Shown here piece by piece: positions 3,436 through 18,546 of a stretch of 31,249 nt of DNA. The notes beneath the pieces are model-generated. The model was not told where the DNA came from, ran no database searches, and was given only the letters and a program-made list of their open reading frames with translations. Each line of letters starts with the position of its first letter. Position 1 is the first letter of the stretch. Made by a program: the position numbers and the translations under genes. The stretch spans positions 1 through 31,249 of the IMG/VR virus record IMGVR_UViG_3300027197_000009; one strand, written 5' to 3'. The DNA is from a virus. Its lineage: Duplodnaviria > Caudoviricetes.

Positions 3436-4011
3436 TTATTCTAGTGTAATGTGACCTGCACCAACTGACCATGGCTCTTCTGCCCAGACGTTAATTGCAA
3501 TTGCACCTCTAGTTCCCTTAGTAACCTCTTGAACTCCGTGAACAACTTCACCTGGATTAAAGATTACAAGTCTATTTGGACGGGTTTTAATTAACTCAGG
3601 TGTCTTTCCTTCGCCATCTGTATAAATTGCCAAATCGCCACCCTCAAATTCAAATCCGGGAGGATAGTATACACATCCTAGAACTGGAAACATTCTATTA
3701 CCCGTCTGTTGACGATATACTACGTCATCGTCTAAGTGTAATTCAAGATAGTTTCTACGACCTGTCATTTCAGCAGATTGAATACCTGTCCAATATTCAA
3801 ATCCATCTGCTGTAATATTTACATTCGATAAAGGAAATTTAGTACCCCAGATATATTGTGTCAATCTTTGCTTTACGTTTGAAGCTGGTTTAGCCCACCA
3901 ACCCTTCCAATAGGTATATTTACCAGTTGGATAAAAGAAATCATCGCCTTCAGCTGCGATATCGTTTAATAGTGTTTCATCTTGAATGAAATCATCAAAT
4001 ACTGCTATCAT
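3436..4011 (-). CDS. 2OG-Fe(II) oxygenase (prolyl-hydroxylase-like)
   Basis: HxD (HLDDD), FEGGDL, NRLVIF, distal His (VVHGV) and an RxAI 2OG-binding Arg. Confidence 0.85.
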   Translation of the reverse strand: MIAVFDDFIQDETLLNDIAAEGDDFFYPTGKYTYWKGWWAKPASNVKQRLTQYIWGTKFPLSNVNITADGFEYWTGIQSAEMTGRRNYLELHLDDDVVYRQQTGNRMFPVLGCVYYPPGFEFEGGDLAIYTDGEGKTPELIKTRPNRLVIFNPGEVVHGVQEVTKGTRGAIAINVWAEEPWSVGAGHITLE

Positions 4012-4319: not shown

Positions 4320-5428
4320 TAAGCTTCTAGTGTTTCATTTAACATATCTTCAATATCTACTGCGTCGATTTCAGTATTATAGTTAAAGATTGGTTTAATG
4401 TGCTCATTAATTTGCTGTAGAACTTCTTCTGTGAAAACTTTACTTGTAAAGAATTCTTTATTTGTTACAGTTTCATCAAGGTGTTTACAAATCCAGGTGC
4501 GTGCAGTTGCTTTAGGAATTTTTTCACCTTTTTCAATAACTCCTTTAGCTACGCCACATACATCCCATGCAACATATTGTTCAAGACCAACGTAAGGATT
4601 CATACCTTCTGAAAAGTGTAAGTGAAATTTAATTGGATGTGGTTTTGCAAAACGATTCTTATCTGGTTTAGCATTAACTACAATACCAACCTTTTCTGCT
4701 CCGTCCTTTAGTTGCGCTTTATTTAACATAAGAACAATTGAGGCTGCGTATTGTGGACCTGTTCCACCACCTGCAATTTGACGAGAAATAAAGTCTTGTG
4801 TTTGGTATGTGTGATTGGTGAATAAGAAAGGAATTTTAAGGTCAGCTAGAGGAGTCATAATAATTCTAAAGATCGACTTAAGAACTTTAGATCGAGTCAT
4901 ATCTGCCTTATCTGAACCTGTTGCAGCATCTTCGATTTCCTTTGCTGTTGCTAAGTTACCAGCTGAATCGAGTACTATCATTACTTTGGGAACTTCTCCA
5001 CCTTTACGTTTAATATCCTGCATCTTTTGTGTGATAGTGGTAACAGATGTACGAAAATCTTGAACCGTGTTGATAGGTTGATAGTTTACCATAGAAGTAT
5101 CAATACCAAACTTTTCCATTTGCTCTTTATCTACTGCCGCTTCTGAATCATAATAGATTACATTGTAACCCATGTTGATTGCTTCGCGAACAGAGTTTAG
5201 CATCAAGAATGTTTTACCTGTTCCAGATGGACCTGCAATTGAACATGAACGGTTATTTGGCCAACCTCCAAAAAGAGACCCACTAACGCATGCGTTTAAG
5301 TGATAATTACCTGTGTTAATCCATTCGGTAACTTCACTGAAATTAGATTGGTTCATAACGGAACCTAGAGGATTTAAACTTGCTAATTCAGCATTTAAAT
5401 CTTCAAATGTAAATTTATTTTTCGCCAT
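4319..5428 (-). CDS. uvsX: UvsX/RecA-like recombinase
   Basis: GPSGTGKT Walker A, YYDSE, VLDSAGNL, DMTRSK, FTNHTY and GGGTGPQYAAS are typical of T4-like UvsX. Confidence 0.93.
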   Translation of the reverse strand: MAKNKFTFEDLNAELASLNPLGSVMNQSNFSEVTEWINTGNYHLNACVSGSLFGGWPNNRSCSIAGPSGTGKTFLMLNSVREAINMGYNVIYYDSEAAVDKEQMEKFGIDTSMVNYQPINTVQDFRTSVTTITQKMQDIKRKGGEVPKVMIVLDSAGNLATAKEIEDAATGSDKADMTRSKVLKSIFRIIMTPLADLKIPFLFTNHTYQTQDFISRQIAGGGTGPQYAASIVLMLNKAQLKDGAEKVGIVVNAKPDKNRFAKPHPIKFHLHFSEGMNPYVGLEQYVAWDVCGVAKGVIEKGEKIPKATARTWICKHLDETVTNKEFFTSKVFTEEVLQQINEHIKPIFNYNTEIDAVDIEDMLNETLEA

Positions 5429-5783: not shown

Positions 5784-6989
5784 TTAAAATAGTGAGGTTG
5801 AATAAATTAAATTTCTATTTAAAGTTTGTAGACCAACTGATGTTAACACTCGATTCAATGGGTCAATGACGCTTTTTTCAAATTGAATTTCATAATCAAT
5901 TTCTGGTGCAATTTCGTACGGGTGATCACCTGGCATATAAGCAAACATATCTGAAATAGCATGTTTACAATGATATAATTTTAACTTTTCACCATTACCA
6001 ATCATCTTATATTTGTTTTTATACTTTGAATTAGTATTCATAAGATAATTGTAGAAGCCTGCAGCCTTTACGTTAGGAGGACATTTAGATCCAATTTGAA
6101 ATTCAATTGTATCATCTACAATATACTTTTCGATATTATTAGTTCTCTTGTTAAATGAAATTTGATCAACATCTGCTAATTGAAATTCTTTCTTACATTT
6201 CTTCAAATAATCAACTAGTTTTTTAAGAAGATCACCTGTTGGTTTTTCTGAAAGTACAATTTTAAGAGCTTCAGTTAAGTGTTTACGTGCTAATGCAGGG
6301 GTTGAAGATTGGATTGTATCGAATCCAATTGTTTTGATCTTTTTTAAAGTCGGATATCTATCGTCAATTGATAGTTTATCTTCCCATGCAATATTTTGTA
6401 AATACTTTTTCTTAGCGAGCCAAATTCCAGAATATGCAATAGTTTCAAGTTCGAACATTAAGAAGTTATCCGTGTTTGTTGCTTCTGCATATCTTTGCAT
6501 ACACTTTACAATATAATCATTCAATCTGAAGTTGTACAACTCCATGATAAACTTGTCGATTGTCATGCTTTCTTCTAGCCATTCAATGGACTCGTACATC
6601 TCTTCAAATTGAACGTAACAAGAATCTGTGTCAATGTAAACCACGGATGGCTTATTAAGATGATTCTTAACTTTTATATTAAATTTCTGGTGTACTTCTG
6701 TATCTTTATGCCAAAATTCTTGAAAGTATTTGTTAAGAATTTTTTCAGAATAAAGAATAGCACTTTGGCCTTGCAGGGTAATTGACTCCGCAATATCGAT
6801 ATTGAAGAAGTGAAACCACTTATTACCGAATGCACCATAGATAGAGTTCAACGTAACTTTAACAGCTTGTTCATATGCTGTATATTTAGTTGACATCATT
6901 TCATAGTACTCGACTAATTCTTTGATCTCTTGTTTTGTAAGCTCGTTTTCAGGCTTACTAATAAGCTTTTCTATATTCTCCAATACCAT
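5784..6989 (-). CDS. Family B DNA polymerase, C-terminal subunit (second fingers helix, palm motifs B and C, thumb)
   Basis: KVTLNSIYGAFG (motif B), YIDTDS (motif C), AKKKY and GFDTIQSSTP. It lacks the exonuclease domain and motif A. Confidence 0.92.
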   Translation of the reverse strand: MVLENIEKLISKPENELTKQEIKELVEYYEMMSTKYTAYEQAVKVTLNSIYGAFGNKWFHFFNIDIAESITLQGQSAILYSEKILNKYFQEFWHKDTEVHQKFNIKVKNHLNKPSVVYIDTDSCYVQFEEMYESIEWLEESMTIDKFIMELYNFRLNDYIVKCMQRYAEATNTDNFLMFELETIAYSGIWLAKKKYLQNIAWEDKLSIDDRYPTLKKIKTIGFDTIQSSTPALARKHLTEALKIVLSEKPTGDLLKKLVDYLKKCKKEFQLADVDQISFNKRTNNIEKYIVDDTIEFQIGSKCPPNVKAAGFYNYLMNTNSKYKNKYKMIGNGEKLKLYHCKHAISDMFAYMPGDHPYEIAPEIDYEIQFEKSVIDPLNRVLTSVGLQTLNRNLIYSTSLF

Positions 6990-6995
6990 AGGTTA

Positions 6996-7748
6996 TTACG
7001 CTGATGCGCAGGTTGCGATTGTTAAAAGTGTTTCTGAGTCATTTGAACGAAGAACAACGCGGTTATCTAAAACGTTTGCTGTGTAATCTTCTTTATCCAA
7101 AAGATTCAAATACTTTTTAAACAATGTAACTTTACCTCCTGAAGTACCATCATAATCTGGTGTAACAAGCATATTATATGTGTTACCGGTCAGTTTAACT
7201 CCTTTGCCATTTGCTTCGATTGAGAATGTTTCTTCTTTATCCAAACCGAATAATGAACGTACTTTATTTAGTGTAGTGTAATCAATGTCAAACTTGTATG
7301 CTGCAGAGTCAACATTAAAGATAGCTTGAATCTGTGCGTCTGTCAAATCTTTGTAACCCAAAGAAGGTTCAGAGCATGCAAGGTTGATCTCGAGTTCATC
7401 GTTATAGATGCGGAAAGTAGTTGCAACACAATCATCTTCGTTTTCGATGAATTCAAATTCACCAGAGATTGAATCATATTCAAACTGCTTAAATGCATCA
7501 GTTAACTTCTGTGCATCGAAGAAAGCAATCTTCAATTCTTTTTCTGTTGTGATTTGACCTTCTTCGATTTGGAACATTTGAGCCAAAGGAATACGGTGGT
7601 GCTTAACTGCATCTCGTTGAGGCAAATAAGCTGAAGCTTGTACAACTCCATCTTTGATTTTGAAATAGATGAAAGAGTCAATGACTTTCAATCTATTCAC
7701 AAAGCTAATAAAGCTGTTTTGATCGACTTTGTTAATCTTAATTTTCAT
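6996..7748 (-). CDS. Putative DNA sliding clamp (gp45/PCNA-like)
   Basis: 250 aa with a two-fold repeated alpha/beta pattern typical of clamps, directly upstream of the polymerase C-terminal subunit. There is no diagnostic motif, so this is an inference. Confidence 0.55.
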   Translation of the reverse strand: MKIKINKVDQNSFISFVNRLKVIDSFIYFKIKDGVVQASAYLPQRDAVKHHRIPLAQMFQIEEGQITTEKELKIAFFDAQKLTDAFKQFEYDSISGEFEFIENEDDCVATTFRIYNDELEINLACSEPSLGYKDLTDAQIQAIFNVDSAAYKFDIDYTTLNKVRSLFGLDKEETFSIEANGKGVKLTGNTYNMLVTPDYDGTSGGKVTLFKKYLNLLDKEDYTANVLDNRVVLRSNDSETLLTIATCASA

Positions 7749-8665: not shown

Positions 8666-8704
8666 AAAAAAAGTGAGGCCAGGAAGTAGCGAACTCCTGG
8701 CCTC
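8666..8704 (-). terminator. Intrinsic terminator after nrdA
   Basis: Perfect 10-bp GC-rich stem GAGGCCAGGA (8675-8684)/TCCTGGCCTC (8695-8704), a 10-nt loop, then AC and a U7 tract on the - strand. Confidence 0.85.
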
Positions 8705-8748
8705 GTTCCGTTAACTATAACGGTCCTAAGAGTGGCCATCACAGCCAC
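8675..8748 (-). ncRNA. Candidate structured RNA element with 23S rRNA helix 69 region complementarity
   Basis: Three consecutive hairpins (8675-8704, 8708-8723, 8732-8748). On the + strand 8712-8730 is TAACTATAACGGTCCTAAG and 8686-8693 is GTAGCGAA, both matching the conserved 23S rRNA/I-CeuI-site sequence. Function and strand are inferred. Confidence 0.55.
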
Positions 8749-8760
8749 ACCTTTAATTAT

Positions 8761-10575
8761 CTATCCATCACAAGAAAGACAGTCAGGATCGATCGCAGCT
8801 GCTGCAATATCTCCTCTAAGTACGCTTTCAGTTCTCATATAATAAAGAGTTTTAATACCCTGATCATATGCTTCTAAGTGAACTTGATTGATGAATTTTG
8901 GTTCTGCTTCTTTTGGAAACGCAAGATTTAAAGAAACTGCCTGATCAACGTATTGTTGTCTAACGCCTGCTTGTTTTACCAATTCTAATTGATTGATTTC
9001 TTTAAACGTCTTGAATATTGATTTAAATGGAATATAATTATCTCTTTGAAGTTCTGATAATCTTTCCATTTTATTTTTATGTAATGGAGCAGTTTTAGAT
9101 GAAACATGTACATAGTAGTCATCGATCCATGAAAGACCAAAAACACTACCACCATCAACTAAAATCTGGTCCCATGTTTCCTTTGTGTTTTTACCGATTT
9201 CTTCTAAAGCTGCTTCAAGAGTTGGATTCTTACGAATGAACGTTCCTTTTGCAGTTTGTTCTGTGAAAACATTGGCAGCCCATGGTTCAATACCCGCTGA
9301 AACATTACCGCTTAATTTAGAATTAGAAACCGTTGGTGCGATTGCTCTTAAGTGTGTGTTGCGCATCCCTGTTCCAACACACCATAGAGGTTCACCCATG
9401 TCAGTTGCCATATCTCTACTTGCTTTTTCACTTTCAGTTTTAATCATTGAGAAAATCTTACGAGTTTCAAATTGAGCTGTTAAACCTTCAAACGGAATAT
9501 TACGTTCTTGTAGGTATGTGTGCCATCCAAGAACTCCAAGTCCAAGTGCTCTACCTTTTTCTGCAGAACGAACTGAGTTTTCAAATCCACGCATAAATTT
9601 TGCCTTTTGAATGAATTCTTCAAGAACACCATCAAGAAACCATGTCGCTGTATAAATAAGATCTGTATCCTTCCACTCATCATACTTTGCAAGGTTCACT
9701 GAAGATAAACAACAAACGAATGAGTGATTTTCATCAGTGTGTAGCGTAATCTCAGAACAAATGTTTGTCATATAAACCTTTAATCCATTCTGTTTATATG
9801 CATCTGGATTTGAACGATTTACATTGCCTTTAAACATAATGTATGGCTCACCAGTCGCTCTACGCTTGCGAATAACTGCAGTCCATCTTTTACGAGCTTC
9901 TTTGTCGCCAGCTTTTACCTTTTGCATAAAACCATCTGAAATTACAACACATTGGTGTAGGTTCAATGATTGACGGTTTACATCTCCCTTTGGTTCGCGA
10001 ATTTCTAACCATTCCCAGAAATCTGCATGTTCAATATCAATATTAACTGAAGCTGCTCCTCGTCTTACGCTTCCTTGGTTAGTTGCTAAAATAGTTGAAT
10101 CATAAATCTTACAAAATGGAACAATACCATCGCTTGTTCCGTTGCCTCTAATCTTTGCACCGGCTGGTCTGATTTGGTTAATACCAATACCAACTCCGCC
10201 TCCGTGTTTTGCTAGCAACATCATCTCTAAATTCTTTGCACCAATATCATGAATTGAATCAGCTACGTCAATACCGAAACAGGAAATTGGAAGGCCTCTT
10301 TCAGTTCCTGTATTTGAAAGAACTGGAGAAGCTAAATTCAACCATCCCTTCCAAATATAATCAAAGAATTTACTTGCCATTTCTGGTTTTTGTAAACGCT
10401 TTGCCACCGTTGTTGCCACTCTCCAATATGCATCCTTTGGTGTTTCACCCTGCATAAGATAGCCATTGCTAATTGTCTTTACATAAATCTCAGTGTTGCC
10501 CCATGTTGGAAAATCTACTCCGATTTCCCATCCTAGGGTTTCACCATGATTAATGCTTTCTACTTTCTTTCCCAT
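8761..10575 (-). CDS. nrdA: Ribonucleoside-diphosphate reductase class Ia alpha subunit (short form, no ATP cone)
   Basis: PISCF, GGGVG, RRGAA, TNICSEI (radical Cys), LGLGVLG, AIAPTVS, KTLYYMR and C-terminal CLSCDG. Confidence 0.96.
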   Translation of the reverse strand: MGKKVESINHGETLGWEIGVDFPTWGNTEIYVKTISNGYLMQGETPKDAYWRVATTVAKRLQKPEMASKFFDYIWKGWLNLASPVLSNTGTERGLPISCFGIDVADSIHDIGAKNLEMMLLAKHGGGVGIGINQIRPAGAKIRGNGTSDGIVPFCKIYDSTILATNQGSVRRGAASVNIDIEHADFWEWLEIREPKGDVNRQSLNLHQCVVISDGFMQKVKAGDKEARKRWTAVIRKRRATGEPYIMFKGNVNRSNPDAYKQNGLKVYMTNICSEITLHTDENHSFVCCLSSVNLAKYDEWKDTDLIYTATWFLDGVLEEFIQKAKFMRGFENSVRSAEKGRALGLGVLGWHTYLQERNIPFEGLTAQFETRKIFSMIKTESEKASRDMATDMGEPLWCVGTGMRNTHLRAIAPTVSNSKLSGNVSAGIEPWAANVFTEQTAKGTFIRKNPTLEAALEEIGKNTKETWDQILVDGGSVFGLSWIDDYYVHVSSKTAPLHKNKMERLSELQRDNYIPFKSIFKTFKEINQLELVKQAGVRQQYVDQAVSLNLAFPKEAEPKFINQVHLEAYDQGIKTLYYMRTESVLRGDIAAAAIDPDCLSCDG

Positions 10576-10584
10576 ATAAATTTA

Positions 10585-11604
10585 TTAAAATAATTCGTCT
10601 TCATCCCAGTTTTCATCTTCGCCTGCCTTAGAATAATCTGTAGGTCTGGTTGCAAAGAAATCTGTATGTGTTGTTCCACCCGTTAAGTGATAAAACCAAT
10701 CTAATTCAGAAGCAGCAGCTTCATCATATTTCATAAATGGTCCATCAGTGTAACCTAATTCTGCAATTTTTTCGTTTGCTCTTTTAAGAATAAACTGTTT
10801 TAGATCACTAGCCTTTAGATTATCAAGATCTCCCATTTCAAACATCTTATCAATGAAATTATGTTCCATGTCAACCATGAGCTCAGCTGCACGAATCACA
10901 TCATCTTTTACGTCCTCTTTCAATTCAGGATATTCTGTGGACATGTGCTTAAATAATTGACAGCCCATCTTAGAGTGTAGTGATTCGTCACGAACTGACC
11001 ACTTCATCTGTTGACCAATTCCTTTTAACAAGTTTCTCATTTGAAACGAGTAAAGAACTGCAAACGATGAATACAATGAAACTCCTTCAGCAAACGCTGA
11101 GAAGATTGCTAGTGATCTAGCAACTTGCTTTCTGGCAGTTGCTGATTTTTGTAGGTCCTCATGAGTCCAATCTGCTTCAGTTGAAGTTAACAATTCAAAC
11201 TTCTCTGAAATTGCTGGTTCATGTAAGAATGCTGAGAAATCTTCAAGACCTAATGTTTCGTTTAAATATGAATATGCAGTTGCGTGGATTGTTTCTTGTG
11301 ATCCAAATGCCATTGCCATTTGTTTGATTTCATGCTTAGGAAACCAATGCGTAACCATACCTGTCCAGTAATCTGAAACTGCGCATTCAGTTTGTGCAAA
11401 CCCCAATAAAATGTTACCTACTAAATTCTTTTCTGCATCTGTTAATTTTTCATTCCAGTCTTTGACATCTCCTTGCATTGAAATTTCAGTGTGTAACCAA
11501 AATGCTTGCATTTGTTTTAACCAACCCTCTGTGTAGTAAACCGGATATTCAAATGGCTTGTATTCAATTCTTTCTTTAAATAAATTAGAATGTGTATTTT
11601 CCAT
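10585..11604 (-). CDS. nrdB: Ribonucleoside-diphosphate reductase class I beta subunit
   Basis: AFW, QETIHATAY (radical Tyr), AEGVSLYSSF, RDESLH and DFFA...DY. Confidence 0.96.
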   Translation of the reverse strand: MENTHSNLFKERIEYKPFEYPVYYTEGWLKQMQAFWLHTEISMQGDVKDWNEKLTDAEKNLVGNILLGFAQTECAVSDYWTGMVTHWFPKHEIKQMAMAFGSQETIHATAYSYLNETLGLEDFSAFLHEPAISEKFELLTSTEADWTHEDLQKSATARKQVARSLAIFSAFAEGVSLYSSFAVLYSFQMRNLLKGIGQQMKWSVRDESLHSKMGCQLFKHMSTEYPELKEDVKDDVIRAAELMVDMEHNFIDKMFEMGDLDNLKASDLKQFILKRANEKIAELGYTDGPFMKYDEAAASELDWFYHLTGGTTHTDFFATRPTDYSKAGEDENWDEDELF

Positions 11605-11731: not shown

Positions 11732-13129
11732 TTATGTTATTCTTTTCTTAAGTTGGTCTGCTTTTGTGAAATAATCATACGACATTTTCTTATATTGTTT
11801 CCGTTGGTCGTATAAATCTGTTAATATCTTTTTAAGAATACTATCTTCTTTTTTATACACTACACCGTTATCGCAAACAATAACTTCTTTATCTTCTCTT
11901 CGTTCTTTAATCTGACTCTTATAAACTTGTTCAACATATGCATCCGGTGAGATGTTAAACTGTCTCATAATAGAAGGATATAGTGAAGCAAAGTCAAATG
12001 CACTAATTCCTTCATAGTAACCTACAATAGGTTCTTTAACGAAAGCTCCAACGTATTGACCATCCTTTTGACCATCTTCTCGTTGTTCTGTTCCAATTCG
12101 CATTCCTTGTTCAGCTAATTTACGAGCCATAAGAGCTTCTGTGATTGCTACTGGAGAACTTGCTTTATACAGTGGCATCTTAGTAATATTCGCCAAGGTT
12201 AAAAGAACTTCCATTGATTTAAGTTTCTGATCTATATAATAGACTAACACGGAGTCAACTACGTTATAGTATATGTATTTAGTAAAGTTATCTCTATAAA
12301 GATCTTGGAGTGAACCTGTGAACTTAATTTTATTTGTATTTAATACTTGACTCGAAACATAATCGAGTGAATTAGATTCCTTTACTTTAACTGAGCGATC
12401 ATATTTATCATACAATTGCATGTAGTCCAGAATTCCAATGTGAAGTGGGCGTGAATCAGTTCTATCAACACTTTGAGTCATACCAACTTCATTAATATCA
12501 ATTTGAAGTCTTTTACAGCGATTAACAATATATTGCCAGTCATAGTTGATAAAGTTCCATCCTGTCATCATTGGAAATTTAGGTAAGAACTTCATTAAGA
12601 ACGTGTATACCATATCATATTCAGTGTTGAACTTATGGTATTTAAATTCCCAATCTTGATCAAAATCTTTGAAATATTCATTAGTATCATCTTCAATCTT
12701 TTGAATACTCTTAGGATCCATATCTTCAAGACCTAAAACAATCGCTTTACGCTCAGGTGTAATGATAGAGAAAGAAAGAATTCTTGATTTAGCTTCTTCA
12801 GCCTTTGGAAAACCATCAACGATTTCAGTTTCAATATCGACAAAATATGTCTTAGGCATATTATATGCCAGTAGTTCTTCTTTATCTCTTTCTGGTAATC
12901 CATCAATAAAATAGACCATTGAGAACTTATTGAACTGGCGAGCTGGACCTAATTTAACAGGTCGACCATCCCAATTTTTAAATTCAGTACTTACTCCTCG
13001 TTCTTTTTCGTCACAGATATACCAGTTTTGAAACTGTGAAATTGGATATTGTTTAAATGCTACTTTGCCTTCGACATCATAGTAGGAAATGATGACGTCT
13101 TTGTCTCTTTGCTCAATATCTAAAATCAT
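11732..13129 (-). CDS. Family B DNA polymerase, N-terminal subunit (3'-5' exonuclease, motif A, first fingers helix)
   Basis: ExoI FVDIET, ExoII GWNFINYDW, ExoIII YNVVDS, YVGAFVKEP and motif A FDFASLYPSIMRQFNISP. It ends at RKQYKKM...KKRIT, before motif B. Confidence 0.93.
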   Translation of the reverse strand: MILDIEQRDKDVIISYYDVEGKVAFKQYPISQFQNWYICDEKERGVSTEFKNWDGRPVKLGPARQFNKFSMVYFIDGLPERDKEELLAYNMPKTYFVDIETEIVDGFPKAEEAKSRILSFSIITPERKAIVLGLEDMDPKSIQKIEDDTNEYFKDFDQDWEFKYHKFNTEYDMVYTFLMKFLPKFPMMTGWNFINYDWQYIVNRCKRLQIDINEVGMTQSVDRTDSRPLHIGILDYMQLYDKYDRSVKVKESNSLDYVSSQVLNTNKIKFTGSLQDLYRDNFTKYIYYNVVDSVLVYYIDQKLKSMEVLLTLANITKMPLYKASSPVAITEALMARKLAEQGMRIGTEQREDGQKDGQYVGAFVKEPIVGYYEGISAFDFASLYPSIMRQFNISPDAYVEQVYKSQIKERREDKEVIVCDNGVVYKKEDSILKKILTDLYDQRKQYKKMSYDYFTKADQLKKRIT

Positions 13130-18477: not shown

Positions 18478-18501
18478 TATAAGTTAGAAGCCTTGTAAAA
18501 T

Positions 18502-18532
18502 AAAAAAGCTCGATAATTATATCGAGCTTTTT
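18502..18532 (-). terminator. Terminator-like hairpin ending the virion-protein array
   Basis: 12-bp inverted repeat AAAAAGCTCGAT (18503-18514)/ATCGAGCTTTTT (18521-18532) with A/T tracts on both sides. Confidence 0.7.
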
Positions 18533-18546
18533 AAAAATGTTTCAAA
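18516..18546 (-). promoter_or_regulatory. Promoter-like TTGAAA-N18-TATAAT (copy 3) upstream of the sugar-enzyme genes
   Basis: TTGAAA at 18545-18540 and TATAAT at 18521-18516 on the - strand; the -10 lies almost entirely in the hairpin loop. Confidence 0.7.

Follow-up and report, generated by a model that had tools for sequence, protein, structure and literature searches.

To our knowledge, the described means by which phages control bacterial translation are proteins, tRNAs or small RNAs directed at mRNA. Antisense RNAs that present a loop to their target are known from plasmids, where CopA/CopT of R1 and RNA I/RNA II of ColE1 are encoded in cis and are fully complementary to a plasmid RNA. 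Bacterial small RNAs such as CpxQ and DapZ derive from 3′ UTRs, end in the terminator of their host gene and act on mRNA targets. As for pairing with rRNA, the C/D and H/ACA guides and the pre-rRNA chaperone snoRNAs of archaea and eukaryotes pair two short guides with adjacent stretches of rRNA, helix 69 (H69) included, and the calicivirus TURBS and Shine-Dalgarno sequences pair with small-subunit rRNA upstream of a codon. Group I introns with I-CeuI-type endonucleases occupy site 1923 of 23S rRNA, the same stretch that concerns us here.

We describe a phage element that is real and conserved and that is probably a natural RNA directed against 23S rRNA, by means of which the phage probably grips the ribosomes of its host. 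It lies in the window (the whole stretch of DNA that was analysed, a complete virus record of 31,249 nt), comes from an uncultured, aquatic phage and closes a group of nucleotide-supply genes. Judging by its genes, the window is the replication region of a large T4-like phage. It encodes SbcC/D-like nucleases, DnaB, a UvsX-like recombinase, a split family B polymerase and nrdAB, all on the − strand, which also holds 33 of the 33 long genes scanned.

The polymerase occupies two genes (11732–13129 and 5784–6989), and between them lie nrdB, nrdA, a glycosyltransferase gene and a gene of 250 aa. Its first part comes closest, at 32–45%, to records from uncultured huge phages, Sphingomonas phage PAU and Lak phages. 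The 250-aa gene (6996–7748) is conserved, has no match in Pfam or PHROG and served as an anchor for fetching relatives; from its position and size we would guess at a sliding clamp. Elsewhere in the window, a strong hairpin at 18500–18534, flanked on both sides by A/T tracts, gave weak Rfam matches and is likely a two-way terminator.

We infer a host in Bacteroidota from the nearest cultured nrdA, that of Flavobacterium phage immuto (59.7%), from a copy of the element in a Flavobacteriaceae MAG and from a Shine-Dalgarno-like word at only 1 of the 37 gene starts in the window. Leaders in the window are A-rich, and scarce Shine-Dalgarno words together with A-rich leaders fit such a host.

The element and its two upstream genes comprise the following parts.

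10585–11604, − strand: nrdB, small chain of class Ia ribonucleotide reductase (PF00268, E 5.9e-57), upstream gene of the probable transcript
8761–10575, − strand: nrdA, large chain of class Ia ribonucleotide reductase (PF02867/PF00317)
8732–8748, − strand: hairpin P1, a covarying stem with two-sided changes in 5/5 pairs and a variable loop
8721–8730, − strand: seed A, complement of 23S 1920–1929, formed by the 7-nt P1–P2 linker and a last 3 nt that make up the P2 base
8708–8723, − strand: hairpin P2, an antisense copy of H69, with an invariant three-pair base and a covarying upper stem
8713–8717, − strand: P2 loop word, complement of the H69 loop 1912–1916 as mapped on E. coli 23S
8675–8704, − strand: hairpin P3, intrinsic-terminator-like, 11 pairs and an 8-nt loop, with a covarying stem
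8686–8693, − strand: seed B in the P3 loop, complement of 23S 1930–1937
8666–8672, − strand: U7 tract after P3, the predicted 3′ end of the RNA

Three hairpins are predicted on either strand (gene strand −40.5 kcal/mol, z −4.6; + strand −34.7 kcal/mol, z −5.3), in agreement with the initial annotation, which had proposed a three-hairpin element after nrdA. It had also placed an 8-mer in the loop of a terminator stem, which is borne out, and given the stem 10 pairs, where we count 11. On the transcribed strand this GC-rich stem is followed by a U tract, as in an intrinsic terminator. The middle bases of seed B are predicted to be unpaired with a probability of 0.95–1.0 and the linker of seed A with 0.38–0.76; conserved, exposed seeds complementary to a separate RNA are what the sequence of a trans-acting base-pairing sRNA presents. 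Seed A begins 30 nt behind the nrdA stop, as measured in an identical copy (L004). The P1 loop gave no match to rRNA. In many relatives this loop carries a UUGAA/UGAAA word reminiscent of a T-loop, which the window's copy is missing.

Comparison with the annotated E. coli K-12 rrlB showed that 8712–8730 equals 23S 1911–1929 and that 8686–8693 equals 1930–1937, so the reading of two contiguous rRNA segments placed in swapped order holds. Each segment occurs once in E. coli 23S and is absent from 16S. The 19-mer thus stood as first described; its CCGT lead-in as part of an extended match did not, because an additional T at 8711 lies between CCG and the 19-mer and limits the exact match to 19 nt instead of 22–23. 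The same base yields a perfect 6-bp stem.

Such a match is indeed very unlikely to arise by chance, as had been supposed. In 200 Markov shuffles of the window, set against a 2,086-nt fragment of 23S, the longest exact match was at most 16 nt and none (0/200) reached 19. The remaining matches between the window and an rRNA operon are at most 14 nt long, which is within chance.

Four IMG/VR contigs with differing sample ids (L004, L008, L011, L013), one of which may be the source of the window, carry the 74-nt element without any difference, and diverged copies with compensatory changes are common among relatives. Together these exclude an assembly artefact, a possibility raised at the outset. 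They likewise rule out contamination with rRNA or vector.

Relatives were fetched by protein and not by motif, 79 loci via nrdA and 80 via the 250-aa neighbour, with some contigs common to both sets; 15 of the fetched loci lacked the nrdA end. The element was present within 320 nt behind nrdA in all 71 neighbour-anchored loci and in 38 of the 73 nrdA-anchored ones, where 34 lacked it and one was cut off. Judged by eye, most of the 34 differ in gene order, and in many of them a thioredoxin-like gene comes next. When 12 records of this element-less type were searched whole, three held clear copies elsewhere, one a marginal match and eight none. In two records the element lies about 30 kb away from nrdA. 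Of 20 records searched, 8 gave no copy, one of them a complete genome of 289 kb whose nrdA is 77% identical. The swapped pattern itself occurs in 16 IMG/VR stretches, always directly behind the nrdA stop and on the opposite strand, with differing stems.

By C-terminal motif, the nrdA genes that precede our 50 distinct copies fall into two clades (36 and 13). Among close relatives these two clades alternate at one locus while the element stays (36 vs 13 of 50).

Column identity across the copies is 0.95 and 1.00 in the seeds and 0.94 in the P2 loop, against 0.57–0.78 in the stems, the P1 loop and the linker. The P2 loop word is retained in 45/50 copies. Seed A is invariant save for changes of the G·U type at 1929 and 1923 and one mismatch; in seed B, 1930–1936 is invariant in 50/50 and 1937 is kept in 47/50. 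Departures from the rRNA complement occur in 28 of the 900 seed cells, and 24 of these remain pairable as G·U (21 at 1929 and 3 at 1923), although the cells are not independent events and 21 of the 24 fall at one position. The other four are mismatches near the seed ends that break pairing. The distance from seed to seed is 26–31 nt in all 50 copies.

An exact antisense run of 18–19 nt is found in only 6 of the 50 copies, while in 43 the longest run is 12 nt or less. A 19-nt invasion of H69, put forward in the initial annotation, therefore does not describe the family. By this alignment, the 19-nt run is lineage-specific, and the constant part of the target comprises the H69 3′ strand together with the H70 junction.

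The stems covary as expected of a folded RNA family in related phages, with a score of 0.505 against 0.202 in shuffled alignments (0/500 shuffles reached it) and at most 0.231 in slid controls. For 79 copies aligned to the model, a set that leans towards it, the score is 0.589. Within P2 the three pairs at the foot show no covariation (79/79 and 78/78), while two-sided changes affect the upper pairs in 23 and 29 of the 79; foot pairs that never covary are expected if their letters matter beyond the stem. Had related phages kept the stems and lost the rRNA-matching bases, the idea would have been refuted by the terms of the initial annotation, and for 1920–1937 we observed the opposite.

Looser pattern scans returned at least 120 matches in viral contigs and at least 117 in metagenomes. 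Among the metagenome matches listed, 75 are distinct copies, of which 47 lie behind nrdA, 24 behind other frames (a few of them nrdA genes mis-scored by the script) and 4 behind no frame. An obligatory tie to nrdA is thus rejected, given these other frames and the two records with the element some 30 kb off. In cellular genomes (GTDB), the tight pattern, which covers only the window-type architecture, matched once, at a phage-like nrdA locus at a contig end in the Flavobacteriaceae MAG. In cultured phages, a 36-nt query gave rRNA records and chance matches and a 99-nt query one weak match; the nrdA region of the nearest cultured phage (L390) did not match the element model. A plain 15-mer scan yielded 93 stretches that mix chance matches in ORFs, one rRNA and several phage forms, and it was not used for counts.

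Two genomes carry two copies each, L253 at 1630–1735 and 2415–2519 and L141 at 3842–3947 and 4370–4456, apparently duplicated around an inserted gene. In the second L141 copy, only the terminator with seed B is left.

A second architecture (L551–L670, at least 120, e.g. L592, L566 and L584) consists of seed A, a small hairpin, a hairpin with seed B and a conserved 3′ tail. The scan for it demanded seed A and another hairpin word, leaving seed B free, and returned at least 117 distinct elements. Among the 117 listed, seed B is exact within 45 nt in 75 and present with at most one mismatch in 88, while the reversed seed occurs in none. The family 3′ tail is carried by 109 of the listed elements, and 20 of these 109 have no seed B. 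Their loops complement other parts of 23S, namely 1964–1969 (14), 1968–1976 (4) and 1938–1942 (2). That all replacement loops match within 40 nt of the original target is hard to explain without pairing. Still, these words were chosen by eye, the automatic longest match lies elsewhere in most of the 20, and the 6-mer for 1964–1969 has three sites in 23S, so we regard the swapped loops as supporting and not decisive. Among the 109, 27 have a seed A that continues in unswapped order, which makes the swapped order one layout among several.

In the same architecture, a word of 9–10 nt in the small hairpin is an exact complement of E. coli 16S from position 519 (the 530 loop). In copies that were not chosen for the word, its middle base is mismatched in 12 of 55; since, in addition, most of the word lies inside a stem, the match may be a coincidence.

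Other forms were also noted. An unswapped one (L029, L030, L063, L074, L093) has 31 nt complementary to 23S from 1911, with G·U allowed, followed by a terminator on the antisense strand. L023, L026, L032, L039, L043, L050, L051, L060 and L100 carry an H69 complement on the gene strand, soon after a stop or before a terminator-like hairpin, and several of these phage groups show a change of the G·U type at U1926. In L356, L364, L308, L429 and L471, seed A lies in a loop closed by an H69-like stem, and a separate tetraloop hairpin follows.

Which strand gives rise to the functional molecule can be read from the pattern of substitutions. P2 contains 11 G·U cells against no A·C, and the 37 distinct P3 stems 32 against 2, or 11 against 2 when the loop-closing pair is excluded. 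The gene strand gives the better fold in 45/50 copies, and a U tract stands behind P3 in 47/50 relatives. These observations indicate that the functional molecule is an RNA antisense to rRNA. The conservation, the strand asymmetry, the G·U-compatible changes and the loop swaps support the proposal that the gene strand yields an RNA antisense to 23S whose terminator loop serves as a seed. In assembled contigs from four estuary metatranscriptome runs, which shared small word fractions with the window (0.07–0.12), we found nine pieces on nrdA and its start and none spanning 8666–8760, a result that neither shows nor denies expression.

The target stretch was found in 5,426 of 5,426 genomes and is identical in E. 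coli. In the phylum of the MAG, 23S 1905–1945 is identical in 30/30 loci, these being the best 30 matches among 60 of 121 genomes with a match, a choice that leans to identity. For the window's copy, the net nested binding energy is −18 kcal/mol and the target is the best of 115 windows on E. coli 23S. For the common L213 form it falls outside the five best of 115. On a coarser grid of 58 windows, H69–H70 ranked first for 9 of 13 copies and second for the other 4, with nested energies between −7.5 and −18.2 kcal/mol (−7.5 to −12 in 9/13). An additive estimate for the two seeds amounts to about −11 to −12 kcal/mol for naked RNA, without ribosomal proteins or tertiary contacts. All these values are rough, because the two-seed complex is pseudoknotted and nested folding is unable to score both seeds together.

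Taken together, these findings make it quite likely that the RNA of the element pairs with host 23S. The element would form the structured 3′ end of a phage transcript, here nrdB–nrdA, and may act on the mRNA or as a stable 3′ fragment. Its seeds would be held at a fixed distance, A in the P1–P2 linker and B in the terminator loop, and both would pair side by side on the continuous host stretch 1920/23–1937, giving two short stacked helices. The swapped order would then allow P2 and the P3 stem to span back along the first helix. P2, as an antisense copy of H69, could kiss the H69 loop with its own loop, while its base could exchange strands with the stem of H69. On mature 50S, a methyl group at 1915 would impede the contact between the loops.

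In the 70S ribosome the target lies buried, turned towards the small subunit, for which reason the RNA most likely binds free or late-assembly 50S. Three published observations argue for free or immature 50S as the target and for blocked joining: H69 and H71 are unformed in Bacillus 44S assembly intermediates (PMC9638911), H68–H71 are disordered in inactive 50S after splitting by HflX (PMC11831132), and an anti-H69 PNA stops translation and growth (as cited in PMC12828698 and PMC7038079). The bound RNA would keep 50S from joining 30S, and host ribosomes would be throttled or parked during infection. We give an even chance to this full reading, in which the RNA pairs with H69–H70 of free or immature 50S and blocks joining. 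Complementarity is uninformative about the outcome, and blocking ribosomes would be costly, since the phage itself needs them.

The same pairing might instead protect 50S from a host defence, a toxin or stress ribonucleases and so preserve it for late phage translation, which we consider unlikely even though all of the pairing evidence would serve it equally. The toxins MazF-mt3 and MazF-mt6 cleave 23S in helix/loop 70 (PMC5408214); the 5-nt word concerned lies at E. coli 23S 1939–1943, adjoining seed B, and two of the swapped loops among the listed elements of the second architecture match 1938–1942. However, the seeds of the window's family end at 1937, before the MazF word. Moreover, a paired 50S would be unable to join 30S, and protection would require a release step for which we have no candidate.

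Next in order of probability, and likewise unlikely, is an action in cis, in which the element on the mRNA catches the 50S freed at the upstream stop, to the benefit of recycling speed or of the stability of the mRNA 3′ end. Fusion to a terminator would suit this, as would the position of seed A, which in 46 of 47 metagenome copies among the matches listed follows the nrdA stop by 22–41 nt and is similarly spaced behind many other genes. Yet such a distance is typical of any terminator cassette, and copies L436 and L438 lie more than 150 nt from a stop. The element is also single-copy in 11 of 12 matching records, so that mostly one transcript would be served.

A still less probable explanation connects the element to its neighbours: pairing would expose 23S to host ribonucleases, and the breakdown of rRNA would feed the co-transcribed ribonucleotide reductase. 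Free 50S is a substrate of starvation decay, and in the window's lineage the element sits behind nrdAB and was retained across the change of nrdA clade. Against this, copies behind other frames (24 of the 75 listed from metagenomes) and the two distant ones mean that there is no nrdA tie, a phage RNase III domain (PF00636) was found in 0 of 5 partial relatives, and the duplexes are short for RNase III in most copies.

It is also conceivable, if doubtful, that we are dealing with an ordinary terminator cassette or a protein-binding RNA that does not pair at all and owes its 23S match to descent from captured rRNA or to coincidence. P3 alone can indeed be duplicated as a terminator without seed A, as the second L141 copy illustrates. 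This explanation nevertheless leaves unaccounted for the G·U bias, the fixed spacing, the presence of the same seeds in unrelated folds and the exchange of loops for others that match neighbouring 23S. Nor is seed B a general terminator loop in five larger relatives, where its word is unenriched (1–6 matches, control 2–11).

The guess that the + strand acts as a mimic of H69, a decoy for rRNA enzymes or toxins, is very improbable. The + strand does fold into three hairpins and bears the letters of the H69 loop, but its fold is poorer, it has no U tract, and the G·U vs A·C counts, like the direction of the long genes (33/33), point to the − strand. The additional base furthermore alters the 7-nt H69 loop, and the upper stem varies freely. 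A DNA decoy for an I-CeuI-type homing endonuclease, also suggested at first, has in its favour that both pieces begin and end at what we take to be the limits of the I-CeuI site, but it can be dismissed for practical purposes, since the 1926–1933 junction across the cut is contiguous in 0/50 copies, most copies share 12 contiguous bases or fewer, and RNA-type covariation and strand bias have no place in it.

We return to the blocking of 50S joining by a paired RNA. Extended to several large aquatic phage lineages, it would describe a natural class of anti-ribosomal RNAs that clamp the host 50S on its H69–H71 face through two or three contacts and control subunit joining, with one widespread form that may reach the 16S 530 loop and so both subunits; we rate this as slightly better than an even bet. 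If true, base-pairing of a viral RNA with a near-universal 23S subunit interface would be a new route of host takeover. Because E. coli shares the target exactly, laboratory ribosomes allow an immediate test, even though the phages are uncultured. The hundreds of natural variants would chart which stretches of rRNA are accessible to an RNA in 50S, a question relevant to late 50S assembly and to antisense antibacterials.

A literature search, with subscription journals mostly outside its scope, found no published description of such an element. Rfam 15 gave no match over the element at E ≤5 in the window and none at E ≤0.5 in 10 related loci. A catalogue of viral structured RNAs (PMC10690425) does not mention 23S in its main text, and five search motifs are absent from 6 of its supplementary files; files 1, 2 and 4, outside this search, could hold the element unnamed.

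Set beside the described systems, the element resembles HflX (PMC11831132) and the synthetic anti-H69 PNA in its proposed action on H69, stopping joining or translation. HflX is a protein and the PNA a synthetic oligomer; a natural RNA of such action was not found in the literature search. Unlike the introns at site 1923, the 125-nt gap behind nrdA holds no intron core and no endonuclease gene, and the site is split and reversed. Like TURBS and the Shine-Dalgarno sequence, the element is a viral or messenger RNA feature near a stop or start that would pair with rRNA, but it lies downstream of the stop and matches the interface of the large subunit.

With snoRNAs it shares two short guides in one RNA for adjacent rRNA stretches. 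An H/ACA or C/D guide was nonetheless rejected: the element has no box motifs or Rfam match, its invariant columns are all rRNA-complementary, its host is bacterial, and its guides abut at 1929/1930 with no gap or unpaired base between them. A pseudouridine synthase domain (PF00849) was found in 0 of 5 relatives, each 43–66% complete.

Like CpxQ and DapZ, the element is placed between a stop codon and an intrinsic terminator, with short conserved seeds. It differs in that its proposed target is rRNA and not mRNA, that one seed sits in the terminator loop, and that its release as a separate RNA is putative. The closest mechanical likeness is to CopA/CopT and RNA I/RNA II, in that an antisense hairpin loop faces a target hairpin loop and a flanking single strand would extend the pairing without a full duplex. 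A cis-antisense RNA of the CopA type was rejected, given a target in host rRNA and an exact run of at most 12 nt in 43/50 copies: unlike CopA, the element stands in trans to its target and is complementary to it at the points of contact only.
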